This document shows positions 2,630 through 58,087 of a DNA stretch of 64,000 nucleotides, piece after piece. Numbering within the stretch: position 1 is the first letter of the stretch; each line of letters begins with the position of its first letter. The stretch lies in NCBI GenBank assembly GCA_038891035.1, contig JAWAEW010000006.1, positions 2,221 to 66,220 of the forward strand, written 5' to 3'. Below the pieces are notes generated by a model. It searched no databases. It was given only the letters and a program-made list of their open reading frames with translations, and was not told the origin of the DNA. The DNA comes from Candidatus Anstonellaceae archaeon (GTDB lineage: Archaea; Micrarchaeota; Micrarchaeia; Anstonellales; Anstonellaceae). The position numbers and the translations under genes are program-made.

Positions 2630-3091
2630 TTAGGAGTGGTATTTGCCAATCAGTGGCTTCATTCCGTATTGTGTTTGTGGGAGCCCGTTTGGAGTTGTGT
2701 AAGATATTCGTACATCATATTCGTATGTCCCACCTACAGAGCCAGCGCCCGCACCTGAAAGCGGAATTATCCTTTGGTCTCCAGATGCGAGTACTGTCGG
2801 AGTAGAATATGAAGCATTGCCAACTGTAATGTTGGTAATTGTAAGGGTGCCAGCTGCATCTCTGTTTACTATCAAGATGCTCCCATTTCCAGAAGAGTCA
2901 AACGAGTGCTCAAGAATTCCAAAAGGCATGGCTTCTCCGCGCCAGTATGCATTTGACTGCGTAATTTTTGCATCAGATGCAAGCCCTGGGAAAAACCCAA
3001 GAAGAGCTATTGACACCAGTGCAATTATCAAAACCACTGCAAGCAACACAAGATACTCAGTTGCACCTTGCCCTTTCATATGAATATTCAT
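2630..3091 (-). CDS. archaeal type IV pilin-like protein (class III signal peptide), putative major pilin
   Basis: N-terminus MNIHMKGQGATEYLVLLAVVLIIALVSIALLG = basic residue + G, Q at +1, then ~22 hydrophobic residues (prepilin peptidase substrate pattern); mature part beta-rich with N-x-S/T sequons (NITVGNASYS). Confidence 0.65.
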   Translation of the reverse strand: MNIHMKGQGATEYLVLLAVVLIIALVSIALLGFFPGLASDAKITQSNAYWRGEAMPFGILEHSFDSSGNGSILIVNRDAAGTLTITNITVGNASYSTPTVLASGDQRIIPLSGAGAGSVGGTYEYDVRISYTTPNGLPQTQYGMKPLIGKYHS

Positions 3092-3213
3092 CTCATCCCT
3101 CCTGTTCGCCTTCGGGTTTTTAACCCTCTGTAGCAACATTCGAAAGTAGAATATAAAAAGCTTTTCGTTTGTCTTCAGCCAAAATTAAATAATAGCATGC
3201 AAAAAAACAGCAC

Positions 3214-5434: not shown

Positions 5435-6400
5435 TCACTCCCATTCTATTGTTGCAGGTGGCTTACTCGTAACATCAAAAACCACGCGATTGACATATTT
5501 TTTCAACTCGCGTGTTATCCTATTTGCGATTGATTCCAGCACTGCCGGCGGAAGTGGTGAGGCTTTTGCAGTCATTCCGTCTATGCTTTCTACAGCACGT
5601 ATTACAACGGTGTAACCATAAGCGCGGGCATCCCCAAGCACCCCAACTGATTTCATTGGGAGAAGCACTGCAAAATATTGCCACGGAAGCTGGATTGTTC
5701 CTTCTGATGCAGCTTTTTCAACTTCTTCTTCAACAATTGCACAAGCTTGTCTGATTATTTCGATTTTTTCTTGCGTGATTGGTCCTAAGATTCGCACTGC
5801 CAGACCGGGTCCTGGAAAAGGCTGACGCTTACATATTTTTTCAGGCAAGCCAAGCAAGAAAGCTACTTTCCTTACTTCATCTTTGTAAAGCTCACGGAGA
5901 GGTTCTATAAGGAACATGCCCATCTTTTTTGGCAACCCACCTACATTGTGATGAGACTTAATAGTGTCTCTAAGACCTGCTCCAGATTCTATCCAGTCAG
6001 GAGCAATCGTGCCTTGCACTAAGAATTTTGCCTTTACCTTTTTTGCTTCTGCCTCAAAGACTTTGATGAAAAGCTTACCTATTATTTTTCGCTTTTTTTC
6101 CGGGTCGGATACACCTTTTAGTGTCGCAAGAAACTTTTGGCTTGCATCGATTATCTTGACATTCACACCTGCTTCGGCAAGAGATGATTTGACTTCTTCT
6201 GCTTCATTTTTTCTCATTAGACCGGTATCTACAAAAATACAATGGACTTTTTTACCCAAGGCTCTTGTCGCAAGGACTGCAGCCACTGATGAGTCTACTC
6301 CTCCCGAAACTGCAATTATTGCAGTTCCGTCCTTTGCCGATTTCTTGATTTCTTGAATTGCTTCTTGGATGAAAGCCTCAGGATCAAACATTCGTTTCAC
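5435..6400 (-). CDS. guaAB: GMP synthase, ATP pyrophosphatase subunit B
   Basis: PP-loop 'VSGGVDSS' and GMP-synthase C-terminal dimerisation domain ending 'ATIEWE'; 4-nt gap to subunit A. Confidence 0.85.
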
Positions 6401-7518
6401 CTTTTGTGCTTCTTGTGGTGTTGCTTTCTTCTAAGTAAAAGTAAAAATGCTGCTATTGCAAAGAAAAGTCCTGCGCCAAGCAAGGCAAAAATCAAATTGC
6501 TTTCAATATCGGACTTTAACCTATTTTCCTTTGTTGGCTCCTGCTGCTGTTGCTGTGGCTGGGTTTGGTTTATTGCCAAGCTGTCTTTGTCGTTTGAGAT
6601 TTTGGATTCAGACATTGGTTCTGTAGCTTCGTTTTCTATTATTAGCTCGTAAGATAGGTTCTGATATGAAAAAATATATTTTCCTGCTTCTGCTGCATTC
6701 AGATACGCTGTTCCATTTGAAGATGTAGTTAGAAATATTTGCCCTGATGGAGTTTCTGCCTGGATTTTTTCGCCTTCAAGAGGCTTGCTTCCATTGAGAA
6801 GCTGTAATGCAATAAGTGAGTGCGTTTTGTTTTCAGATGTGACAATTAAGGCAATTTTTGGCGGCTCTTGCGGCTTTGCTTGCTCAAGCACTACATTAAG
6901 CTGTGCAAAATCTGACAAATAAAGCTGTTGAATTTCCTCTTTTGGAATAAAGCCTTCTGCTTCAAATGCTATCCTATATTGCCCCTCTGGCAAAAAAGAA
7001 ATTAGGAAATATCCGTCCTTGTTTGGAATATTGTCCTTTTTGTGGTTGAGTCTTGCTATCACTTTTGAATCGGAGTACAATGTGATTGAAGAATTGGAAA
7101 AGTCTTTGGGTCCTTCTATTCTGCCCCAAATACCTGCATATGCGATCTGCTCGCGCATGATATAGGTGATGTTTCTATTCATATCTATCTGAACGAGATG
7201 GACGTGGGTGGGGTATCCACCTCTTTTCAGAATTACAAAATAGCTCCCAGGCAATACTTCAAATGTGGCAGTTCCGTCTTTTCCTGCTTTTGAAGAGGCA
7301 ATTTCTACTCCTTCGTGAAGGATGGAAATATTTGTTCCAACTGCAATTGTGTCAGGAGGGACAAGGACTTTTATTTGGAGAGTGTAGGAAGAAACCAAGG
7401 ATAGAAGGCAAAGCACTAAAGTCACCCATAATCTATTCACGAAACCACCTATCGAATCTAATTGTGCAACCAATAAAAGGCTACTGCCTCCAACATGCAA
7501 TAGTAATTGCCTCTGCAT
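6397..7518 (-). CDS. secreted surface protein with carboxypeptidase-regulatory-like beta domains, Q-rich linker and C-terminal TM anchor + basic tail
   Basis: hydrophobic signal-like segment [16 protein letters not shown] (true start may be internal GTG near 7440); C-term '[32 protein letters not shown]'; co-directional and directly downstream of four pilin-like genes. Confidence 0.5.
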
Positions 7519-7822
7519 GGCTGTTTCTCCAAACTGGAAAAGTAATGCTGGTCTTGCTGCCTCCTAAGTACGCGCAGGTTGAAAGCTCTTCTGCTTGAAA
7601 GCAGATGCCAGAAAGATTGGAGATAAGATGGAGCCTTTCGTTCAGAACTGCTTCATCTGAGAAAGATGAGGAATCGATTAGCACTTGCACGGCATCAAAG
7701 CACAGGAAAAGGTCTGGCTCGCTGGCGGTTTTGGCTTCAAAGGTATGAAGTAAAAGGGCAGCCTGCACTAAAAGGATAAATGAGGCTACTGCTTCTAATG
7801 ACATTGCAAATGCTTTTTTCAT
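7481..7822 (-). CDS. pilin-like protein with class III-type signal peptide
   Basis: Preferred start MKKAFAMSLEAVASFILLVQAALLL (KKA then hydrophobic stretch with E at +6); ORF track start 7882 overlaps upstream gene. Confidence 0.4.
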   Translation of the reverse strand: MKKAFAMSLEAVASFILLVQAALLLHTFEAKTASEPDLFLCFDAVQVLIDSSSFSDEAVLNERLHLISNLSGICFQAEELSTCAYLGGSKTSITFPVWRNSHAEAITIACWRQ

Positions 7823-8274
7823 GACACACACACCGTAAGAAGTGCAATTTTTCCTGAAAGAAAGGCAAGCCTTTTTGTGCAATAAGCTTGTTTCCCGTCA
7901 TTACCCGCAACCCAATCCATCATTGTTTCATCCTCAAAAGCAAGGGAAGCTTTGACTGATGACAGACCAAATGCATCTCTTATAGGCCTCAAATCAAAGT
8001 CTGTCTTGCCTTCATAAAGAGAATCCAAAAGGACATACGAAATCCTTATCGAAAGTAAAGTGTATGATACTGAATTTGAGTAATATGAGAAACTTTCTGA
8101 AGCAAAATAGAGAAGCTGTAGGAATGTCAAAAAGATGATGAGCGTTGAGAGGAACGCAATCGAGGCATCCAAAGAAAAAAACGCTTTAATGAAGTTTGAT
8201 TTGCACATAAAGCTTTCCCTCCGCATCCACTGAAGCGTTGTGAAGGAGCCTCTCACTGACATTTTTGTTGCCAC
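7819..8274 (-). CDS. pilin-like protein (class III-type signal peptide), start uncertain
   Basis: N-terminal region ...MCKSNFIKAFFSLDASIAFLSTLIIFLTFLQLLYF: basic residue + A followed by ~25 hydrophobic residues; several alternative in-frame starts (8262, 8226, 8208). Confidence 0.4.
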   Translation of the reverse strand: MATKMSVRGSFTTLQWMRRESFMCKSNFIKAFFSLDASIAFLSTLIIFLTFLQLLYFASESFSYYSNSVSYTLLSIRISYVLLDSLYEGKTDFDLRPIRDAFGLSSVKASLAFEDETMMDWVAGNDGKQAYCTKRLAFLSGKIALLTVCVS

Positions 8275-8533
8275 AGTGAAAAATTTGGCTCATATTTATG
8301 CAAAGCCACGAAAAGTCTTCATATGACTTTATGTGCGCCTTTGAAACGGCAGCAGTATCAAGCAAGAAAGCAGCTTTGGCAAGCTGGATTTTTTGGTAAT
8401 TTGCATTTATCTTTTGGGCTTCGCTTTCTACAAGATGATTTGCTGAAAGAGAAAGTATAGAGATGGCTAAAAGTAGGGCAAAAAAAGAGACAAGGGCTTC
8501 AATTGAGGATTGGCCACGAAATGTTGGCTGCAT
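8186..8533 (-). CDS. pilin-like protein with class III signal peptide
   Basis: MQPTFRGQSSIEALVSFFALLLAISILSLSA: RG|Q cleavage-type motif, E at +5, 20-residue hydrophobic helix. Confidence 0.55.
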   Translation of the reverse strand: MQPTFRGQSSIEALVSFFALLLAISILSLSANHLVESEAQKINANYQKIQLAKAAFLLDTAAVSKAHIKSYEDFSWLCINMSQIFHCGNKNVSERLLHNASVDAEGKLYVQIKLH

Positions 8534-9083
8534 TAAAACTTACCTCCTCTTCCGGAAGGCGAAATGCTGCACCTTGCCCTAAATGTTCTACAAAAATGGA
8601 AAAACCAATCGAAGGAAGATGAATACTTTGCTGGCTTAAATCTATATAGATTGACTTTAGGCATTCGCTGCTTGAGATGTGATGGGTGCTTTTTGGTAGG
8701 ACTGGTTCTTTGAGGCTTTCCATTTCTTCTGACACTAGTCGAATTTCATCGAAAGAGGGTTGGCCGCACCAAAGCTTCACCGAAAAACCTGCTTGTATTA
8801 TTTCTTGCTCAAGATTTATGAGTGCTTGGTGCACTTGCTTTTTTGCTTCCGCATATGAGTCAGTTCTGGCGGCAAAGGAAATTAAGATGCCTTTTTCTGC
8901 AGCTTCCGATGCTGCAGCATATATTGCTTTTCTGATGGCAAATGCCTCAAGCTCCACTAATTTATATTTCTCAACAGAAAATGCTGGCTTTTTTGCCTGA
9001 AGCGACAGTGAAGCAAAAGAAAGCAAAGTGAATAGGAAGATAGAGGCAACAAAAAATGTAAACAGACCTCTTGTCATCTCCAA
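8499..9083 (-). CDS. pilin-like protein with class III-type signal peptide
   Basis: MEMTRGLFTFFVASIFLFTLLSFASL: RG followed by hydrophobic helix; first gene of a four-gene overlapping operon. Confidence 0.45.
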   Translation of the reverse strand: MEMTRGLFTFFVASIFLFTLLSFASLSLQAKKPAFSVEKYKLVELEAFAIRKAIYAAASEAAEKGILISFAARTDSYAEAKKQVHQALINLEQEIIQAGFSVKLWCGQPSFDEIRLVSEEMESLKEPVLPKSTHHISSSECLKSIYIDLSQQSIHLPSIGFSIFVEHLGQGAAFRLPEEEVSFNAANISWPILN

Positions 9084-17020: not shown

Positions 17021-17350
17021 TTAGCATGAGATGGTAGTTCCAGGTGGAGCAAGAAGTTGCAAGACTTTGGGGGAGACAGTTGCAATCAAAATGCCTATCA
17101 AAGCTCCTGTAAGGCAAGAGGTTGCCCACACATTTGCGCGAGCCCGCGTTTCTGCTCCCATCATTTGACCTGTTGCATAAATGACTGCAGAAAGAACAAT
17201 CATCGTCATGGCGGCAATAGGTATTAAGTCTTTAATTCCGGTGCAAAGTTGCTGTAAGGCGTCTTTGAGTTTCTGTGTGGGTGGTTGAGAGGTAGCAACG
17301 ATAGTTGCCACTAAAAAAACCAATATGATAGCTAACACTTTTTGACGCAT
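17021..17350 (-). CDS. small secreted membrane protein, VirB2/TrbC-pilin-like topology
   Basis: 109 aa: signal peptide MRQKVLAIILVFLVATIVATS, then two hydrophobic helices separated by short polar loop (GQMMGAETRARAN). Confidence 0.4.
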   Translation of the reverse strand: MRQKVLAIILVFLVATIVATSQPPTQKLKDALQQLCTGIKDLIPIAAMTMIVLSAVIYATGQMMGAETRARANVWATSCLTGALIGILIATVSPKVLQLLAPPGTTISC

Positions 17351-45546: not shown

Positions 45547-47949
45547 ATGGAGATTGTGACAAGAAGGGCAATGCTTTTAGATGCGGATTATACGATAGTT
45601 GAAGGCAGGACTGTTGTTAGGCTGTTGATGAAAGGAAAACGTTTTTTTCGGCTTTATGACTATTATTTGCCTTATTTTTACTTGGATGCCCCAAAAAATG
45701 CTGAAGAGCTGATAAGAAAGGTTCGCGTTCAAAATGAAGGAAGACAAGTCACTCCAGTAAAACTTGAATGGGTTAAAAAAAGCGTTTTTGGCCAGGAGCG
45801 TGACATCTGGAAAGTGTACTGCGAGAGGCCTTCGGATGTGCCGAAAATAAGCAAAGCACTGCCTTATCCTTCTTATGAAAACGCAATTCCATTCGGAAGG
45901 AGATATTTGATTGATAAGGGGCTCTCTCCATTTACTACACTAGTTTACAAAAGGAAGGGGAAGTTTCTCATTGAGATAAAGAAAATTCTTGACAGAAAGG
46001 TCCCGCTTAGGACCATGTCTTTTGACATAGAAACCTACAATCCGCAGGGAACTCCACGGCCCGACCAAGACGAAGTGATTATGATAAGCTATGAAATTGG
46101 GCATACGGGGGAAAGAAAGGTAATCACCAGCAAAGACGTCAAAAGAGATTTTGCAATCGTATGCAAGGATGAAAGGCAGATGATTGAAAAGTTTCTTCAA
46201 GTGATCAGGGAAAATGACATTGAAGTGCTGTTTGGTTACAACAGCACTGTGTTTGATTTGCCATATCTTAAGGCAAGAGCAGATGCTAACGGATTGAATT
46301 TTGGGATTGGACGGGATGGTGGACCTTTTAGGATGAGAAAGCATGGGATAAGGAATGTTGCAAAAATCGTAGGCAGGATACATGTGGATCTTTATCCACT
46401 TGTCCGATTTATGGGTTTTATAGGAGCATTCAAGGTGAGCAAATATAGCTTGGAAAATGCGTATGAAGAACTAACTGGAAAAAAGAAGTTGATGGTTCAG
46501 AAACTGGATATTTGGAAGATGTGGGAGGACGAAAATCTTGTAGGCAAGCTTGCAGACTATTCGCTTTTTGATGCGCAGGCAACCATGGAGATAGGTAAGA
46601 TTTTGCTTCCACTGGAAATAGAAATGAGTAATTTGACTCGACTGCCTCTTTTTGACACAGTAAATGCAACGGCTGGCCAGCTTGTCGAATCTTTGTTGAT
46701 GCACAAAAGCACACAGAATAATGCAATAATTCCTAACAAGCCTGAGGATGCAGTTGCGCATGAAAGAGAGCTTGGTCCAATAAAGGGGGCTTTTGTCAAA
46801 ATCCCGCAGCCCGGGATTTATGAGAATCTAGTAGTGTTTGACTTTAGAGGTCTTTACCCTTCTATTATCACCTCACACAATATTGACCCTTTTACCTTGA
46901 ATCCACCAAGCTCGGTTCCGGACTCTGACTGCTATATTGCACCGAATGGAAGTCGCTTTTTGAAGAGCCCGAAAGGACTTATTCCTATGGTGCTTGAGGA
47001 ATTGATAGAGATGAGAAGCAAGCTCAAAAAGCGGTTGAAAGAGATTCAAAAAGACACACCGGAATACGAAATGCTTTTTGCACGTGTGCAGTCGCTAAAA
47101 ATACTTGCAAATTCATATTATGGATATCTGGCTTATCCGCGCTCAAGATGGTATTCCAGAGAATGTGGAGAGGCAGTGACGGCCTGGGGAAGGCATTACA
47201 TTCAAGATACTATAAGAAAAGCAACGGAAGCGGGTTTCGAAGTGCTATACAGTGATACTGACTCTGTTTTTCTTTTGCTTGGGAAAAGAATGAGAGAGGA
47301 TGCTCTTTCCTTTATGGAAAGCATCAATAGGCAGTTGCCTAAGGATATGGAATTGGAGCTTGAGGGATTTTATCCGAGGGGGCTTTTTGTAACTAAGAAA
47401 AATGCAGAAGGCGAAGGAGCCAAGAAAAAATATGCTTTAATAGGGGAGGATGGAAGGATAAAAATACGTGGCTTTGAGCTTGTGAGACGCGATTGGTCGA
47501 ATATAGCAAAGACAACACAAAAAAGAGTGCTTGAGGCAATTTTGAAGCATGGTAGCAAGGAAATGGCTGTTAAGATTGTGAAAGAGACGATCGAACAGCT
47601 GAAAAAAGGAAATGTTCCGATCGATGATCTGGTAATTTATACACAAATACGTAAAGACCCTCGGAAATACGATGTTAAATCTCCTGAGCTTTCTGCAGCA
47701 CAAAAGGCAATAGCTGCAGGCATTCCGATAGAAAAGGGGAGTGTAATTGGATATGTGATTACAAGAAGAGGGACGAGCATCTCGGAGAAAGCAACCCTTG
47801 CAGAGCTTGCAACAGATTATGATCCAAACTATTATATACAAAACCAGGTGCTTCCTGCAGTAATGAAGATATTGCAGGAGCTAGGATACAGCGAGGATGA
47901 TTTGAAATTTGGCGGGAAGCAGACCGGCCTCTCCTCTTTCTTAGAATAA
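45547..47949 (+). CDS. polB: DNA polymerase, family B
   Basis: exo motifs 'FDIET' and 'YNSTVFDLPYL', polymerase motifs 'SYYGY' region and 'YSDTDSVFL'; 800 aa, no intein. Confidence 0.9.
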   Translation: MEIVTRRAMLLDADYTIVEGRTVVRLLMKGKRFFRLYDYYLPYFYLDAPKNAEELIRKVRVQNEGRQVTPVKLEWVKKSVFGQERDIWKVYCERPSDVPKISKALPYPSYENAIPFGRRYLIDKGLSPFTTLVYKRKGKFLIEIKKILDRKVPLRTMSFDIETYNPQGTPRPDQDEVIMISYEIGHTGERKVITSKDVKRDFAIVCKDERQMIEKFLQVIRENDIEVLFGYNSTVFDLPYLKARADANGLNFGIGRDGGPFRMRKHGIRNVAKIVGRIHVDLYPLVRFMGFIGAFKVSKYSLENAYEELTGKKKLMVQKLDIWKMWEDENLVGKLADYSLFDAQATMEIGKILLPLEIEMSNLTRLPLFDTVNATAGQLVESLLMHKSTQNNAIIPNKPEDAVAHERELGPIKGAFVKIPQPGIYENLVVFDFRGLYPSIITSHNIDPFTLNPPSSVPDSDCYIAPNGSRFLKSPKGLIPMVLEELIEMRSKLKKRLKEIQKDTPEYEMLFARVQSLKILANSYYGYLAYPRSRWYSRECGEAVTAWGRHYIQDTIRKATEAGFEVLYSDTDSVFLLLGKRMREDALSFMESINRQLPKDMELELEGFYPRGLFVTKKNAEGEGAKKKYALIGEDGRIKIRGFELVRRDWSNIAKTTQKRVLEAILKHGSKEMAVKIVKETIEQLKKGNVPIDDLVIYTQIRKDPRKYDVKSPELSAAQKAIAAGIPIEKGSVIGYVITRRGTSISEKATLAELATDYDPNYYIQNQVLPAVMKILQELGYSEDDLKFGGKQTGLSSFLE

Positions 47950-48813
47950 ATATGTCAAGATGTCCCCAAAGAGCAAGGCAAAAAGAAGACCAAGCAAAAG
48001 ATGTGGGAGAAAAAATGGCATTTTTGTATAGACAATCACTTCTCTTATACGGGCTGCTTTAAGCTTGGCAATTTGTTCTTTTGTAATCACAGGCTTAAGC
48101 GAAAGCTTTCTTACAAGTTGCTGATTCATAAGCTCAAGCGCAAGCACGTCTTCCTCTTGCAGCAAAGAGACTTTCACTCTTTGTGCCATTGCTTCCTTGA
48201 TTTCTTTTTTGAAGAATGAGAAAAAAAGCAAGCTTACGAAAAGGAAAGCGATCAACAAAATAAATGCTTGAGAGATTCTGCCTGGCAACATGAACAAAGC
48301 GATGTTGAAGGCGGCAAATGACAAGGATAACGCAGCAAGCCCAACAAATTTTTCAAGCGAAAAGGTGATTTTGCCTTTCTTTGCAAGCTCTGTGACATAT
48401 GGAAGAAAACGTAAAAGCATATGCAAAATGAAAAATATGCTTGCCGGGACAAGCACTGAGATGATAAATGGATATGGTGCGGTTTTTCCTTCTGCAAAAA
48501 AGGGCTGTGGAGCATATGGCAAGGCAATAGCAATTGCTGAAAGCACAAACATGTCTGCGCCCCCGATTTGACCTGCTTTGTAAAGGAGGAAAGAGAGAGC
48601 AAAAATTGCGGCACCAAACGCAAAAGCATGAAAGGTGGCTGGACTGAAAAATATAAAGTTCAAAAATATCGCAGCCGCTAAAAAAGCGTAGACCAAGTTG
48701 TTTGGAACCCATTTGTTGTTAAATAAGTCAAAATAAGCAGATGCTGCAGTGAACAAAACAGAAACAATTACCCTAATTTCAATGCCTGGAATTTGGCTTG
48801 GCGAAGAAAACAT
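47941..48813 (-). CDS. prepilin/preflagellin peptidase (A24 family, PibD/FlaK/EppA-like)
   Basis: 290 aa polytopic membrane protein with the two catalytic Asp contexts 'SAYFDLFNNKWVPN' and 'GQIGGADMFVL'. Confidence 0.6.
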   Translation of the reverse strand: MFSSPSQIPGIEIRVIVSVLFTAASAYFDLFNNKWVPNNLVYAFLAAAIFLNFIFFSPATFHAFAFGAAIFALSFLLYKAGQIGGADMFVLSAIAIALPYAPQPFFAEGKTAPYPFIISVLVPASIFFILHMLLRFLPYVTELAKKGKITFSLEKFVGLAALSLSFAAFNIALFMLPGRISQAFILLIAFLFVSLLFFSFFKKEIKEAMAQRVKVSLLQEEDVLALELMNQQLVRKLSLKPVITKEQIAKLKAARIREVIVYTKMPFFLPHLLLGLLFALLFGDILTYLF

Positions 48814-53524: not shown

Positions 53525-53690
53525 CAGACCACCTTCCAAAATCTGAGTAGATGTGTTTAAAGTATTTGCGCAAAAACCAGGCCGAGTGCCTTGGTTTTGG
53601 CCAGGTAAGCATCCCAACGAAGATATCTTTATAAATTATGCCGACGAAGACACGTCGTGAATCCCATACCTATTTTGGAGGTGTTTGTAG

Positions 53691-53906
53691 ATGGGACAAA
53701 AAGTTGGAACTGAAAAGATACAGCGCGAGGAGGGCTACCTCTATTATATCGGGAAGGATGGATATGTTTGGAAAGCGCCGATGAAACACAACAAGCGCGG
53801 CAAAAAGGCGCGTGTTGGCACTGAAAAGATAACCAAGCAAGAAGGATATATGTACTACCTTGGCAAGGACGGATACGTCTATAAGGCAAAGCTGAAGAAT
53901 GCTTAA
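53691..53906 (+). CDS. small lysine-rich protein made of two tandem ~33-aa repeats
   Basis: GGAGGTG Shine-Dalgarno 7 nt upstream of ATG, TTTATAAATT TATA-like box at ~53660; repeats (V)GTEKI-x-EEGY-x-YY-x-GKDGYV-x-KA. Confidence 0.5.
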   Translation: MGQKVGTEKIQREEGYLYYIGKDGYVWKAPMKHNKRGKKARVGTEKITKQEGYMYYLGKDGYVYKAKLKNA

Positions 53907-53924
53907 ACTGTCCATTTGATTTTT

Positions 53925-53969
53925 GGGCCTGGCTCGGACGTGAAGCTGGGCCCTTCTGTTTTTGTTTCG
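53925..53969 (+). terminator. GC hairpin + T-tract downstream of small repeat-protein gene
   Basis: GGGCC(53925-53929)...GGCCC(53949-53953) stem followed by TTCTGTTTTTGTTTCG. Confidence 0.4.
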
Positions 53970-54003
53970 ATAGGAATTAAAAAAACAAACGAGTAGTTGT
54001 AGC

Positions 54004-56328
54004 ATGGGCTGCAGAGCAGAATATAGCGGAAGCAGGCTGGTGATGGATTGCCCGACCTGCGGGCTTGGACTTTCTACTCCTCAATGCATAAACTCGCATC
54101 TTAGAGTTCTTTCTACTCTTCCTCGACCTTGGCGCACAATGCGCTATGAGGAAGAGATGGTAGTTGACTTGGATGAGGAAAAAAGCGCAATACTGCAAGA
54201 ATATGCAGGCCTTATTAGACAAGTTGAAGCCATAATGCTCAATCCGAAAGTTTATGGTAGGCCTGAGGATGATTATTATTTGCAGCGGAAAAAACTGCTC
54301 AAGGACTTTTATGAGTATATGTTCATGAATCCGTTGGTAGCTGCACAAGTGCTCAAAGAATATAATGAGCCTTATCCTCAAAAGGCAGTTTTTGTAGAGG
54401 GGTATCGTACATTCCAAGCTTGGGTAAATGGGATATTGGATGCCTATACGAAGTCTTCACTATACATTCTTTGCCAAAAGACAGGTGACTTGAGGGCTGC
54501 TTTCCTTGCACTTCTTGGCCTCAAAAGCGTGCTTTTCCTGCAAAACATAATTCTGTCGGTCCCAAAAGACGCAGTTGAAATAGAAGGTCCTGATGCAAAT
54601 TATGATCTTCCTTATGGGCTAAAAGTAAAGATTTATGATCTGCCTTCTGGTGAAGCGAGGCTTTACACAATACACGACCCGGTAATAGAAAACCTTTCCC
54701 CTCAATTGCAGGAGATGCTTAAGAACGCCATACAGGAAGGTATGAAGGAACTGAGGCAGGTTGAAGATTATACAACCTTATTTGACGAAAAAAGTAGAGA
54801 ATATGCGCAACGTTTCATAGACAAGGCTACGCTTGAAAATATCCCTATTACTCAAAAGGAAGCTGTTGCGATGGGAAGGGAGGCAGCATGTTGGGTGGTT
54901 GGTCTTGGCTCGCCTATAGAAAATATGGCCTTGGACAAAGACAACATAACAGATATTTACATCGATGCCGAGAATTCGCCAATATATATTGAACATGCGA
55001 AATTTGGCCTCTGCCACACCCTCTGGAGATACAACAGGGAAATGCTTGAGAATGTCTTCAAAAACATCATCGCATCTGCGCCAGGGGCGCGGAAATTTGA
55101 TAAAAACACTCCTGTGATTGATGTAGTTCTAAGTCGCCTTGCGATGAGGTGCCATCTGCAGCGCCCACCTGCGACCTTTGGCGAGCTTCAAGCTGCTTTG
55201 AGATTGATGAGGGATCAGCCGTTTACTTATCCAATGTACCTTAAGCTCAAATCGATGAGCCCGTTTTTTGCAGGCTATGACGACGTTATGGTTTCGCTTG
55301 GTTGCTCTGAAGCAGTGCTTGGGCTAAAAGGAGTAGGCAAAACCGCATTTACCTCAGCCAAGATTGCAGCAATAGGAACAAAAAAGAGGATATTGCCCAT
55401 TCAAGACATAGAGGAAATTCCTACTCGAGCATATCGAAAAAGAGGGTTCCACATAGGTGCTGTGCAAGTGCAGTCTTCTGAGATAGAGGATGTCGGCAAA
55501 ACACCTGAACTTGACTTGGTTTCGATGACGAATGCGGCTTTGCGTATGGGAGACGCTTGTGTCATAATCAACGAAATACGTTCCAGGCTTGCAATACAGG
55601 GTGTCATCAACATGCTCAATACTCAGCCCGGAATTTTCCTGCTTTATAACTTGCATGCACAGTCCCTTAAAGATGTGCAAGACCGGCTTGAGCTTGTATT
55701 TGGTGTCCCTGCCGCTTCAATGTTTTCAACAGACAGATATACTTTTCTCAAAAAAGTAAGGTTTGGCAGGAAAAGTAGAATATACAGAATGGTCGGATTC
55801 CAATACGAAACGGATATCTCTGAGCATAAATTTGTTCAGGTATTTTTGCTTGACAGAGCTGAAAGCGTAGAAAAGACGCGCCTTAGATGCTTGTTTTTGG
55901 ATATGCCCGAAGCCGAGGCAGAATCGCTTGCTGATGTAGATTTGGGCAAGCTTGCAAAAAATATGAAGATAAAGTTTTTGCCTCCTGCATTGGTCAGAAG
56001 ATCTGATGAAACCGGTCTTTCCCCGCAACAGTATATAATGGAGGCTTTCTTCAAAGGTAAAATGTATTCTCAGATTGCAGAATGTGCGGATAAATACAAC
56101 CATCCACAATTTGTTGAGCTGGATTTTGTATTGAGGTGCAACACTGCTGCAAACAATCTGCTAAGAAAGCTTGAAAGCGAAGAAAATGAAATTGACTGGA
56201 AGGCTGCAGATAAAGAGTGGCAAAGGATATTTGAGCAATTAGTTCAAAAAGAGCTTGCAGAAGCAAAGCTGGAAGAAGAAAAAAAGAAAGGAGGAAAAAG
56301 ACCTAAAGCCGAGACGCAAACTCCTTGA
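54004..56328 (+). CDS. atypical large secretion/pilus-assembly ATPase of the VirB11/FlaI/PilT superfamily with N-terminal Zn-ribbon extension
   Basis: 774 aa; 'ITDIYIDAENSPIYIEHAKFGL' (T2SS-E N-domain), Walker A 'GLKGVGKT', Asp box 'RILPIQDIEEIP', Walker B/His-box region 'AALRMGDACVIINEIRSRLAIQGVINMLNTQPG...LHAQSLKD'; N-term 'CPTCG'; ~300-aa N- and ~170-aa C-extensions. Confidence 0.6.
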   Translation: MGCRAEYSGSRLVMDCPTCGLGLSTPQCINSHLRVLSTLPRPWRTMRYEEEMVVDLDEEKSAILQEYAGLIRQVEAIMLNPKVYGRPEDDYYLQRKKLLKDFYEYMFMNPLVAAQVLKEYNEPYPQKAVFVEGYRTFQAWVNGILDAYTKSSLYILCQKTGDLRAAFLALLGLKSVLFLQNIILSVPKDAVEIEGPDANYDLPYGLKVKIYDLPSGEARLYTIHDPVIENLSPQLQEMLKNAIQEGMKELRQVEDYTTLFDEKSREYAQRFIDKATLENIPITQKEAVAMGREAACWVVGLGSPIENMALDKDNITDIYIDAENSPIYIEHAKFGLCHTLWRYNREMLENVFKNIIASAPGARKFDKNTPVIDVVLSRLAMRCHLQRPPATFGELQAALRLMRDQPFTYPMYLKLKSMSPFFAGYDDVMVSLGCSEAVLGLKGVGKTAFTSAKIAAIGTKKRILPIQDIEEIPTRAYRKRGFHIGAVQVQSSEIEDVGKTPELDLVSMTNAALRMGDACVIINEIRSRLAIQGVINMLNTQPGIFLLYNLHAQSLKDVQDRLELVFGVPAASMFSTDRYTFLKKVRFGRKSRIYRMVGFQYETDISEHKFVQVFLLDRAESVEKTRLRCLFLDMPEAEAESLADVDLGKLAKNMKIKFLPPALVRRSDETGLSPQQYIMEAFFKGKMYSQIAECADKYNHPQFVELDFVLRCNTAANNLLRKLESEENEIDWKAADKEWQRIFEQLVQKELAEAKLEEEKKKGGKRPKAETQTP

Positions 56329-57616
56329 GGAAGTCTTCCAACCTGTCTGCTGGGATTGTTGCACCTGCTGCAATGTTGTGCCCTCCTCCACTTCCGCCAA
56401 CTGCGGCACATGCTTGAGAAAGAACTACTCCTAAGTTAAGTCCTGCCTCCACTAATTCTTTGCTTCCCCGAGTGGAAATTTTTATCATACCGGGGCTTTC
56501 ATCTGCAATTGCAAGAACTGGCTTGCTTTTACCACCTGGGTAAAGCATGCCTGCAATCACTCCAATTATAGTATCTTTTATTGCTCCCCGCCCGTCCAAA
56601 AAGAAAAATTTCCCAAAATCCTGTGTATTCTTTAAAGCAAAGGCAAGGCCTTCTCTTAAGTTTTTCCTGTGCTGTGCAAGCAAAATCTTCGCCTTTTCAT
56701 ACGCATTTTCTTTTGAAAGACATACTGCAACCCCAAGCCCATACTGGCCGTTTCTGCCGCAAGCATTCAATAAGGTTGAGAATTCTGAGGCATCTGCAAG
56801 CTCAGTTTTCTGTGGCTTTTTTGGGAAGATGTAGACTTCTCCTACGAGCTTTTCTGCTGCCTGTGGGGAGATCCTTGCAGAAAGCAAATCTGCAAGCGCG
56901 GATACCAGCTTTTGCTTCTCATTCTCACTCAAATCAGAATAACATCTCCACTCTGAGTTGTCTTTCAGCGGAATATTCAGCTGTGAAAGGAAAGAGGCAC
57001 ATGCTTCTTCATTTCCTGTGAGGCCTGGGAGATAAGGGTCGTCTGCATATGAAAGAAGTTGAATCAATGGTCTGCTGTTTCTTCCAAAAAGCCGCAAGTC
57101 TATTTTGGCTTCTGCCAACCCTGCCTGCTGGGCCTCGTGAAGCATTATACGGTTGAGGCTTTGTAGGGGATATTGGATGTCTCCTACTGCGCCAGTTATG
57201 CCAATCTCTGGCGCTTGTCTGAAAACAAAATAAGCGCATGCGGAGGCTGAAGCTTCGCTTCCGCCGTCAAAACCAAAGAAATGAGGATTTGCTTGAAGAT
57301 GGGCTTTTGATTGGGGCTGGTGGTGGTCGATTATTATGATGTTTGAAGAAAGCTGATCGATAGAAGGTGTGCTACTTCCTAAATCAACAAAAATTAAATT
57401 TGGCTCATTTTTGAGGCTAGAGATTATTTGTTCGTCAAGCTTCTTTACAGTTAGCATTCTGTATTTTGCCTTGCGCAATTCAAACCATGAAGCAACTATT
57501 GAACCGGAAGAAATTCCATCGCAGTCATAATGATGGACTATGAGCGGGTCTTGCATTCTTTCTGCAACTTCCAGTGCTTCACTGCAGCGCTCAAAGAAGG
57601 CATTTTGGTTTTTCAT
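56303..57616 (-). CDS. DHH-family phosphoesterase, archaeal RecJ/GAN-like nuclease
   Basis: DHH motifs 'HHYDCDGISS', 'IIIDHH', DHHA1-type C-terminal domain 'GGGHNIAAG'. Confidence 0.7.
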   Translation of the reverse strand: MKNQNAFFERCSEALEVAERMQDPLIVHHYDCDGISSGSIVASWFELRKAKYRMLTVKKLDEQIISSLKNEPNLIFVDLGSSTPSIDQLSSNIIIIDHHQPQSKAHLQANPHFFGFDGGSEASASACAYFVFRQAPEIGITGAVGDIQYPLQSLNRIMLHEAQQAGLAEAKIDLRLFGRNSRPLIQLLSYADDPYLPGLTGNEEACASFLSQLNIPLKDNSEWRCYSDLSENEKQKLVSALADLLSARISPQAAEKLVGEVYIFPKKPQKTELADASEFSTLLNACGRNGQYGLGVAVCLSKENAYEKAKILLAQHRKNLREGLAFALKNTQDFGKFFFLDGRGAIKDTIIGVIAGMLYPGGKSKPVLAIADESPGMIKISTRGSKELVEAGLNLGVVLSQACAAVGGSGGGHNIAAGATIPADRLEDFLKEFASRL

Positions 57617-57667
57617 ACAGCAAGAAATAGCAGAAGACGTATAAAAGGCATTGTGGAAAACGAAACC

Positions 57668-58087
57668 ATGGAATTTGAGCATGCGTCAGATGTCCAGCAG
57701 AAGGTTGAGGAGATTGTATCTGTTTTGTCTTCAAGCTCAAAAGTAGCTGAATTTAGGCATATTAATCAATTCAGAATAATTTGCATGCGATCCAGAGGTT
57801 CAAAGGCAAATGCTTATGCAAGGATTTGGAACCTGCCTATGATCTGGCAAAAGGCACTTTCGGTTGGAGCATTTTACATAATAGAAGTAATAAGCGATCA
57901 TTATGATTCTCTTGATGAAGAGCAAAAAGAGAAAGTCCTTTTACACGAACTTATGCATATTCCAAAGACATTTTCAGGTGCGCTTCGGCCTCATAATGGC
58001 AAAGTAAAAATTAACCGTCAAACTGTGGAGAAGCTTTATAGGATATATCTAAAAGAAAAAACGGCTGAAGCGGTGGGTTCAAAATGA
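57668..58087 (+). CDS. putative Zn-metallopeptidase (HExxH; SprT/DUF45-like)
   Basis: 'VLLHELMHI' zinc-binding motif in 139-aa protein. Confidence 0.45.
   Translation: MEFEHASDVQQKVEEIVSVLSSSSKVAEFRHINQFRIICMRSRGSKANAYARIWNLPMIWQKALSVGAFYIIEVISDHYDSLDEEQKEKVLLHELMHIPKTFSGALRPHNGKVKINRQTVEKLYRIYLKEKTAEAVGSK

Follow-up and report, generated by a model that had tools for sequence, protein, structure and literature searches.

Within the 64-kb window (the whole stretch of DNA that was analysed), positions 54004–56328 of the forward strand encode a FlaI/TadA-class ATPase of 774 aa, which starts at an ATG and whose stop codon is included in the coordinates. As the initial annotation described, the gene is flanked by a small repeat ORF and a convergent RecJ. 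The upstream neighbour is a two-repeat ORF of 71 aa (53691–53906, forward strand), followed at 53931–53965 by a hairpin and T-run, which suggest that the ATPase gene is a separate transcription unit. A TATA-like A/T-rich element at 53973–53986 on the same strand, ~20–30 nt before the ATG, is its putative own promoter, as judged from the sequence. Downstream, the archaeal RecJ gene (56303–57682, reverse strand; NCBIfam RecJ_archaeal, 430 bits with a cut-off of 360) overlaps the 3' end of the ATPase gene by 26 nt.

Based on its structure and motifs, the ATPase belongs to the secretion/type IV filament ATPase superfamily (PulE-VirB11; PF00437 T2SSE), and it contains both the NTD2 and the RecA-like CTD fold. 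With a shallow alignment of 20 sequences (each >56% identical), AlphaFold modelled the ATPase core at pLDDT <50, and a deep alignment was used instead. The resulting model (pLDDT 92) has afGspE, FlaI, and CpaF as its best structural matches, with VirB11 more distant. The earlier assignment to a VirB11/FlaI family is therefore right as to the secretion/pilus superfamily, but the protein is closest to FlaI, afGspE, and CpaF/TadA, and VirB11 lies further off.

The sequence strings on which the initial annotation relied are all located in the 774-aa ORF and can be assigned to domains, each encoded on the forward strand. A small alpha/beta unit (aa 1–57; 54004–54174) carries four cysteines (C3, C16-x2-C19, and C28, hereafter Cys4), which include those of CPTCG at aa 16–20, and an invariant RYEEE at aa 47–51. 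The remainder of the N-terminal module (54175–54699), consisting of a helical bundle (aa 58–170) and a small beta subdomain (aa 171–232), has no Pfam or PDB sequence match and is common to the canonical relatives, the long-form archaeal FlaI-like ATPases compared below. A three-helix bundle (aa 233–300) and NTD2 (aa 301–418) follow at 54700–55257, the latter with ITDIYIDAEN (aa 315–324), YIEH (aa 328–331), and R382. Next comes the RecA-like catalytic domain (aa 419–575; 55258–55728). The C-terminal subdomain (55729–56238), a beta sheet (aa 578–629) and helices (aa 661–745), largely corresponds to the C-terminal region of FlaI and afGspE. The end of the final helix and a low-complexity tail occupy 56239–56325; the tail is K/E-rich, as had been claimed (13 of the last ~30 residues), and its length is highly variable within the family.

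The estimate that the protein is ~220 aa longer than FlaI was about right in size, but the surplus is mostly N-terminal (~155–190 aa), the N-terminal module of ~190–230 aa making up most of it. At the C-terminus the surplus amounts to ~50–70 aa plus the low-complexity tail, given that in long relatives the FlaI profile can be aligned as far as residue ~690; the supposed long C-extension is mostly a normal FlaI-type C-terminal domain. Nor is the architecture atypical, since both extensions are common, end to end, to a widespread clade of ~700–800-aa archaeal ATPases. The length of the ATPase is thus normal for its own branch of the family.

The Cys-bearing N-extension is likewise present but not defining. 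The Cys4-bearing module is ancestral and Cys4 is often lost: it occurs in about 55–65% of the canonical relatives, and at least a third of the Micrarchaeota members have lost it, with Cys at the four motif columns, counted column by column, in 9–14 of 15 Micrarchaeota sequences and 32–47 of 74 canonical relatives. This patchy retention indicates that Cys4 is neither a defining nor an essential feature, and we rejected a Zn ribbon as the family-defining feature, C16 and C28 being gone in many members. The pattern suggests that Cys4, where retained, may bind zinc; the only C2H2-like matches obtained were insignificant. In some family members a second candidate feature of the module, aa 166–184, exceeds all 74 canonical relatives in hydrophobicity. 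It was rejected as a membrane anchor, as it is inconsistent across clades, contains Lys, and folds into a globular domain in the model.

The catalytic motifs are read here against cryo-EM structures of CpaF, in which residue roles, including Mg coordination by E312, have been assigned (PMC11300603). The Walker A motif GLKGVGKT (aa 440–447; 55321–55344) is invariant in the family, with K446 and T447 equivalent to CpaF K287 and T288. In the Asp box QDIEE (aa 467–471; 55402–55416), the Mg-coordinating E471 (CpaF E312) is kept and Q467 takes the place of the first Glu; D468 and E471 are invariant, and Q467 is found throughout the Micrarchaeota family. The Walker B segment ALRMGDACVIINEIRS (aa 512–527; 55537–55584) contains the trans-acting R514 (CpaF R347), the catalytic E524 (E357), and R526 (R359). 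The His-box region NTQPG...NLHAQS (55618–55665; NTQPG at aa 539–543, LHAQS at aa 550–554) contains H551 (CpaF H382), and the phosphate-contacting R382 of NTD2 corresponds to CpaF R223. All these CpaF-defined residues (K446, T447, E471, R514, E524, R526, H551, and R382) are identical in the ATPase, and they belong to a set of just 11 columns that do not vary among 89 diverse sequences.

With the Walker A Lys and the Walker B Glu intact, the substitutions that would mark a dead ATPase are absent, and the retained residues indicate that the protein is apparently catalytically competent; a hexameric working form is presumed, by analogy with relatives whose structures are solved. The Micrarchaeota family has five fixed second-shell substitutions (R442K, S448A, E467Q, T469I, and G523N), which probably tune kinetics without abolishing activity. 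E467Q was rejected as a catalytic knock-out, the Mg-coordinating residue of the Asp box being the second Glu, which is kept. The missing first His of the His box was also discarded as a sign of degeneration, as canonical archaeal relatives lack it too.

Full-length homologs form more than 450 protein clusters with 56–93% identity to the ATPase, which places the ORF far beyond chance, and at least 163 species genomes, almost all of them from Micrarchaeota, encode the full-length protein. The Micrarchaeota family is a single 50%-identity cluster, separated from the next by a sharp score gap (1364 vs ~135 bits). Between distant genomes, its conservation is at the level of the DRG GTPase and SRP54 and exceeds that of RecJ, Pus10, or the prepilin peptidase. 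The ATPase itself misses the PF00437 gathering threshold and has no Pfam match at E ≤ 0.01; a precomputed PF00437 match exists for a minority of the Micrarchaeota family members, and the canonical relatives score 62–88 bits. A profile built from the canonical relatives alone nevertheless matches ATPase residues 6–748 over its positions 10–714 (E ~1e-79). By profile scores, structure, and shared architecture, the ATPase is a Micrarchaeota-specific ortholog group, vertically inherited and derived from the widespread long-form archaeal pilus-ATPase clade.

Archaeal type IV filament ATPases are normally identified, and assigned a function, through their adjoining platform and pilin genes. The canonical relatives examined, seven of seven, adjoin a FlaJ/TadC-like platform (496–729 aa, 6–10 TM); these platforms are homologous to one another, three of them giving weak T2SSF matches, and wherever their surroundings were inspected, small genes encoding hydrophobic, pilin-like N-termini were present as well. 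In contrast, none of 80 Micrarchaeota loci has a platform gene within 10 kb of the ATPase. The initial annotation had noted that no platform gene is adjacent here, and HMM searches of six-frame ORFs extend this to the entire window. Two ORFs in the window considered as cryptic platforms were rejected: one, with 16 TM, is a Na+/H+ exchanger, and the other, of 332 aa with 5 TM, has an hhalign probability of 0.9% to the platform profile. Searching a 5.8-billion-protein collection with that profile for Micrarchaeota platforms returned three matches only, none of them informative. A MAG labelled Micrarchaeota (QMVG01) contains a canonical long-form ATPase-platform-pilin operon. For the complete Mia14 genome, three ATPases are listed, two of them encoded close to TadC genes and one, MIA14_0940, on its own.

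Several putative pilus components are encoded elsewhere in the window, all on the reverse strand. A prepilin (class III signal) peptidase (47941–48813; 290 aa, ~8 TM; Pfam Peptidase_A24, E 1.2e-7) is a putative partner located 5 kb upstream of the ATPase, in a gene order conserved within the ATPase's own clade. Four small pilin-like genes at 7481–9083 (194, 115, 151, and 133 aa) have hydrophobic N-termini, one with FRG/QSSIEAL, and match the profiles of families F12 and F31 weakly; these putative filament subunits occur in the same four-gene order one gene from the ATPase in ~10–17 loci of another Micrarchaeota clade. A further candidate pilin of 169 aa (2630–3139) has the N-terminus KGQG/ATEYLVLLAVVLII and a Class_IIIsignal match (E 6e-4) of 20.1 bits, below the 23.7 cut-off. 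The peptidase and pilin-like genes of an archaeal type IV pilus set thus appear to be present, with pilin support that consists of weak profile scores and clear N-terminal motifs. For Anstonellales MAGs, type IV pili have been reported on the basis of a FlaIJK score given without details (PMC8561730). Separately, an isolated 109-aa ORF 37 kb from the ATPase gives a weak VirB2-like match.

In other Micrarchaeota, a DUF63 membrane protein is encoded next to or near the ATPase in nine loci of one clade, and a SecF-SecD-kinase set lies immediately upstream of it in ~20 loci of another. Each of these associations is limited to one clade, and DUF63, SecDF, and the Ser/Thr kinase were therefore rejected as conserved partners.

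The best-supported reading, already raised in the initial annotation, is that the ATPase powers a dispersed pilus. We consider it moderately probable that it drives type IV pilus assembly with the peptidase upstream, the pilin-like genes, and a platform whose gene lies in another part of the genome. The ATPase would bind and hydrolyse ATP where NTD2 meets the CTD, and its domains would move around the ring as rigid bodies in the manner of FlaI and CpaF. A FlaJ/TadC-type polytopic platform, acted on by this motion, would insert pilins with class III signal peptides, processed by the peptidase at 47941–48813, into a surface filament. Of this picture, the analysis shows the modelled fold, the retention of the catalytic residues, the high degree of conservation, and the location of the gene apart from any platform gene. 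The absence of a platform from the 80 loci and the window means that the central partner of the dispersed-pilus model is unobserved, and the links to the peptidase and to the pilin block, each confined to one clade, could reflect inherited gene order without functional coupling. Three further points count against it: the drift below the T2SSE threshold and the lineage-fixed changes at the nucleotide site would also fit a changed role; adhesion-pilus ATPases are not usually conserved at a housekeeping level; and, should MIA14_0940 be the ortholog, the orphan would be one motor in addition to others.

It is possible, though rather unlikely, that the ATPase is instead a second motor that uses the platform of another, canonical locus, as a retraction, alternate-direction, or accessory ATPase analogous to PilT/PilU. 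Such a role is consistent with its orphan state across the phylum, set against the platform-adjoining relatives, with its very high conservation, and with fixed nucleotide-pocket substitutions that could alter kinetics. The canonical operon in QMVG01 and the two TadC-near ATPases listed beside an unpaired one in Mia14 also fit. Against this, we know of no dedicated archaeal retraction ATPase. Moreover, the related CpaF is bifunctional (PMC11300603).

Still less likely, we judge, is repurposing without a FlaJ/TadC platform, either to translocate DNA, protein, or other cargo where the cell contacts its host or to work with some other membrane partner (DUF63, or SecDF with the Ser/Thr kinase). 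The failure to detect a platform in the 80 loci or the window, a degree of conservation like that of housekeeping genes in organisms that depend on hosts and have reduced genomes, the divergence below the Pfam threshold, and the DUF63 and SecF-SecD-kinase loci are all in keeping with this, as is the raised hydrophobicity of aa 166–184. However, the alternative neighbours, each from one clade, are not found near the ATPase in the window; the hydrophobic segment has Lys, is missing in one clade, and is globular in the model; the whole architecture is kept from pilus-type ancestors, including N-terminal regions expected to face the platform; and the genome has pilin-like genes and a prepilin peptidase. 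Taken as one proposal, a lineage-specific second or repurposed motor that does not assemble an ordinary adhesion pilus (a PilT-like counterpart docking on the platforms of other loci, or a translocation ATPase for obligate host association) would explain the housekeeping conservation, the detachment from pilus operons, and the fixed nucleotide-pocket changes; we hold it to be similarly doubtful.

A degenerate, catalytically inactive relic or scaffold is very unlikely. The Gln in place of the first Asp-box Glu, the Asn in place of the Walker B Gly, and the missing Pfam T2SSE match would suit it, but the eight catalytic residues are kept and invariant, identity across the phylum stays at 56–93% (the SRP54/DRG level), and the substituted Glu is not the one equivalent to the Mg-coordinating residue of CpaF. 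An assembly or annotation artefact, in which a small N-terminal gene was frameshift-fused to an ordinary FlaI gene, has only the unusual length to recommend it and is extremely improbable, being refuted by an unbroken architecture across independent assemblies (>450 clusters, at least 163 species genomes) and by an N-terminal module that is homologous to that of canonical relatives and packed confidently in the AlphaFold model (pLDDT 85–97).

These observations describe a host-dependent, genome-reduced phylum that keeps a motor under housekeeping-level constraint, although the gene is detached from any platform and the nucleotide pocket is remodelled. Should the motor have dispersed partners, as we prefer, it would be useful as a marker and would urge caution in counting archaeal pili by their operons; a second or repurposed motor would instead be relevant to archaeal pilus retraction or regulation and to DPANN host engagement. 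The present value of the family is mainly evolutionary and for annotation, as no new mechanism is demonstrated here.

Among known systems, VirB11 (HP0525, PDB 1g6o) is further from the ATPase than FlaI, CpaF, or afGspE; the ATPase scores 34.8 bits to TIGR02788 (cut-off 250), and no T4SS genes (VirB4, VirB6, or VirD4) were identified nearby. The afGspE/GspE2 protein of Archaeoglobus fulgidus (PDB 2oap) is 17% identical and lacks the N-terminal module, and the match is uninformative on role. FlaI, the archaellum assembly and rotation ATPase of Sulfolobus acidocaldarius (PDB 4ii7, 4ihq), is 17–18% identical, and the ATPase differs from it by the extra N-terminal module of ~190 aa; the ATPase scores 41.4 bits to the FlaI equivalog NF058587 (NCBIfam cut-off 550), and no FlaH, FlaX/CDE, FlaJ, or archaellin genes occur near it. 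Of the proteins with solved structures, CpaF/TadA, the bidirectional Tad motor of Caulobacter (PDB 8rkd, 9e24), matches the ATPase best by sequence (E 8e-11). TadA is also the best NCBIfam family (61.9 bits), yet the TIGR03819 cut-off of 373 is missed. The catalytic residues of CpaF map one to one onto the ATPase, whereas CpaF has E308 where the ATPase has Q467, and CpaF/TadA is bacterial and encoded together with TadB/TadC, neither of which is near the ATPase.

The closest likeness in architecture is to the long-form archaeal FlaI-like ATPases (~700–800 aa, Pfam T2SSE), which share it over the full length, including the C-terminal helices and an N-terminal module with a C-x12-16-C-x2-C-x8-10-C motif. 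They are found in Woesearchaeota, Hadesarchaea, Hydrothermarchaeaceae, Thermoplasmatota, Altiarchaeales, and Methanocella, and are known from sequence. Identity to the ATPase is only 20–27%, and their GxRGxGKT, EDTxE(L/I), and GEVR motifs are replaced by GLKGVGKT, QDIEEI, and NEIR in the Micrarchaeota family. A further parallel, by analogy only, is with the bacterial retraction ATPases PilT and PilU, which are encoded away from pilC and, like the orphan ATPase, combine separation from the platform gene with high conservation.

The ATPase gene (54004–56328, + strand) starts with ATG and encodes 774 residues. The motif strings quoted in the initial annotation all lie where expected in this ORF, namely CPTCG (residues 16–20), ITDIYIDAEN (315–324), YIEH (328–331), GLKGVGKT (440–447), ALRMGDACVIINEIRS (512–527), NTQPG (539–543), and LHAQS (550–554); QDIEE occupies residues 467–471, and the translation bears out the K/E-rich tail. 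The flanks are likewise as first described, with a 71-aa ORF (53691–53906, + strand) built from a duplicated ~30-aa unit (GTEKIxxEEGYLYYIGKDGYVWKA...) upstream and a convergent archaeal RecJ (56303–57682; NCBIfam 430 bits, cut-off 360) downstream, the 3′ end of which runs 26 nt into the ATPase gene. The repeat protein has no match in Pfam, NCBIfam, or PDB; it is kept in 11 of the 81 loci examined, and its gene immediately precedes the ATPase only in those of Anstonellaceae type. Because a hairpin and T-run follow the repeat gene and an A/T-rich box precedes the ATPase ATG by ~20–30 nt, the ATPase gene looks like a separate transcription unit. It sits among archaeal housekeeping genes (SRP54, Pus10, family B polymerase, GatD/E, and DRG GTPase), with a prepilin peptidase also nearby. 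A 111-aa ORF on the opposite strand (53670–54005) is an antisense shadow of the repeat gene. Beside RecJ, with a start overlapping it, a 185-aa ORF (57530–58087, + strand) matches "Putative phage metallopeptidase" (PF18894, E 7e-23).

No Pfam family matches the ATPase at E ≤ 0.01, and its NCBIfam matches (TadA 61.9 bits, FlaI 41.4, VirB11 34.8) are all sub-threshold. Its best sequence matches among solved structures are CpaF (E 8e-11), afGspE, and FlaI. The AlphaFold model, built on a deep alignment with distant relatives (pLDDT 92, pTM 0.85), matches afGspE (2oap; E 5e-22, TM-score on target 0.75), FlaI (4ii7/4ihq; TM-score on target 0.71), CpaF (9e24, listed after FlaI), PilB, HP0525 (VirB11), and PilT, with respective structural-match values of 27.1, 25.5 (420 residues), 25.7, 24.3, 23.9, and 20.4. 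Taken together, the sequence and structural matches place the ATPase, as modeled, in the FlaI/afGspE/TadA branch of the secretion-ATPase superfamily. Of the original "VirB11/FlaI-family" assignment, the FlaI side thus stands, while VirB11, lower in both sets of matches, is more distant kin.

More than 450 clusters (90% identity) match the ATPase over its whole length at 56–93% identity, and nearly all named homologues are from Candidatus Micrarchaeota, Micrarchaeia, or Anstonellaceae. Homologues occur in at least 163 species-representative genomes, the closest (93%) being in an Anstonellaceae MAG. Three MAGs carrying the orphan ATPase (so called because no platform gene adjoins it) are titled "Candidatus ainarchaeum sp."; the family could extend to Iainarchaeota, or these MAGs could be mislabelled. 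When 1.84 billion 50%-identity representatives were searched exhaustively, the Micrarchaeota family formed one full-length cluster (1364 bits), below which scores drop sharply to ~135 bits and ~27% identity. Among genome pairs whose ATPases share <70% identity, median identities of the ATPase and its comparator are 59% and 61% (DRG GTPase), 56.5% and 59% (SRP54), 61% and 54% (RecJ), 55% and 40% (Pus10), and 55% and 40% (prepilin peptidase). Constraint on the ATPase is comparable to that on universal housekeeping proteins.

The ~27%-identity relatives, found in Methanocella, Altiarchaeales, Woesearchaeota, Hadesarchaea, Hydrothermarchaeaceae, and Thermoplasmatota, are themselves 700–800 aa long and match Pfam T2SSE. 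A profile from these canonical relatives alone aligns to residues 6–748 of the Micrarchaeota proteins (E ~1e-79), so both extensions, initially considered atypical, are ancestral to a "long-form" archaeal clade. As the FlaI profile reaches ~residue 690, the true surplus over FlaI is mostly N-terminal: a module of ~155–190 aa, with the "long C-extension" reduced to ~50–70 residues plus a variable low-complexity tail. As modeled, this module comprises a small alpha/beta unit (residues 1–57), a helical bundle (58–170), and a beta subdomain (171–232), after which come the three-helix bundle, NTD2, and RecA-like domain as usual; the module has no counterpart in Pfam or among PDB sequences. What was proposed as a Zn-ribbon is a Cys motif (C3, C16-x2-C19, C28), which also occurs in about two-thirds of sampled Micrarchaeota and ~55–65% of canonical relatives and is replaced in whole sub-clades; it is plausibly a metal knuckle, ancestral but dispensable. 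Residues 166–184 (54499–54555; AFLALLGLKSVLFLQNIIL) are unusually hydrophobic (19-residue Kyte-Doolittle mean 1.94; >1.6 in 6/15 Micrarchaeota members and 0/74 canonical relatives); in the model they form part of the globular N-terminal module.

Cryo-EM of CpaF assigned roles to K287 (P-loop), E312 (Asp box, coordinating Mg), E357 and R359 (Walker B), H382 (His box), R223 (NTD2), and R347 (from the neighbouring subunit) (PMC11300603). In a HMMER alignment these correspond to K446, E471, E524, R526, H551, R382, and R514, all identical in the ATPase and invariant in the Micrarchaeota family, and all among only 11 columns invariant over 89 diverse sequences. The sole Asp-box change relative to CpaF is at the first Glu, E308 to Q467. 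The first His-box His is missing, which we rejected as a sign of decay because the canonical archaeal relatives lack it too. Between 15 Micrarchaeota members and 74 canonical relatives, differently fixed sites crowd round the nucleotide pocket (R442K, S448A, E467Q, T469I, G523N, and several in 533–549). We read the whole as an enzyme that is active but has been retuned around its active site, which may affect its kinetics.

All seven canonical long-form ATPase genes with retrieved loci, one from a MAG labelled Micrarchaeota, abut a gene encoding a 496–729-aa protein with 6–10 predicted TM helices; these platform proteins are mutually homologous, and three give weak T2SSF matches. Where inspected, these loci also carry series of small genes whose products start with hydrophobic, pilin-like segments, most clearly in L088. 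In two out-group MAGs (L085, 165–659; L088, 9437–10009), the pilus operon starts with an exosortase/archaeosortase-like gene (PF09721) and is flanked by very large surface proteins (~1,650 and 2,400 aa), which may point to a module coupling pili with surface-protein sorting.

As initially noted for the window, no platform adjoins the Micrarchaeota ATPase: HMM searches and profile-profile comparison detected none within 10 kb in 80 loci or anywhere in the 64-kb window, and neither set contains a second T2SSE ATPase. Gene order varies with clade. The window type reads PolB, prepilin peptidase, Pus10, an unnamed gene, SRP54, PFK, small repeat protein, ATPase, RecJ; a second reads SecF, SecD, Hanks-type Ser/Thr kinase, ATPase, aminotransferase, four small pilin-like genes, Spt4, Rpo7; and a third reads DUF63 membrane protein, ATPase, DRG GTPase. 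The kinase (HRDLKPEN, DFG; L037–L076, e.g., L075 8334–9944) lies immediately upstream of the ATPase on the same strand, is often duplicated, and has SecF-SecD ahead of it; the arrangement may reflect regulation or no more than gene order passed down by descent. The polytopic DUF63 gene (PF01889; L022, L023, L026–L028, L030; e.g., L028 8925–9851) is divergent from the adjoining ATPase, and is absent from the window.

The window has four overlapping pilin-like genes (7481–9083, − strand), one starting MQPTFRG/QSSIEAL, in the same order as the block in the kinase-type neighbourhood, and a further candidate pilin (2630–3139). The ATPase is thus loosely and clade-dependently associated with pilus components, but not with a platform. 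A 373-aa surface protein following the block (6397–7518, − strand) has CarboxypepD_reg-like domains, a C-terminal hydrophobic anchor, and a basic tail. Separately, a 109-aa ORF (17021–17350, − strand) with three predicted TM helices gives weak, sub-threshold matches to TrbC/VirB2 pilin (E 5e-4) and T4SS_pilin (E 9e-4); it stands isolated, with a Na+/H+ exchanger on one side and an NFACT-like gene on the other, and no other T4SS genes were seen.

The best-supported account, and one we consider somewhat probable, is a functional pilus-type motor with dispersed partners. ATP would drive domain movements in a presumed hexameric ring, which would act on a FlaJ/TadC-type platform encoded elsewhere to assemble class-III-signal pilins processed by the nearby prepilin peptidase. 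Anstonellales MAGs are reported to score positive for FlaIJK (PMC8561730). That the ATPase is instead a second motor sharing the platform of another locus seems rather unlikely; the complete Mia14 genome has two ATPases near TadC genes and a third, "CpaF-family" MIA14_0940, listed alone (PMC5498576 supplement), the latter being a candidate ortholog of the orphan family. Repurposing for a role independent of a platform is improbable. A dead enzyme or frameshifted fusion, both raised in the initial annotation, is effectively excluded by the retained, invariant K446 and catalytic E524 and by the abundant full-length homologues in a single cluster, which also rule out an assembly artefact.

Databases label the ATPase generically ("ATPase, T2SS/T4P/T4SS family"), and our literature search found no paper describing the orphan Micrarchaeota subfamily. 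DPANN reportedly lie outside the coverage of Makarova et al. 2016. How much interest the ATPase gains depends on whether a dedicated platform exists, a whole-genome question. We take it to work like FlaI or CpaF, and its structure and motifs place it in both the secretion-ATPase superfamily and the long-form archaeal clade. As it falls below the curated cut-offs of FlaI, TadA, and VirB11 and lacks their gene contexts, none of these three names should be assigned to it.
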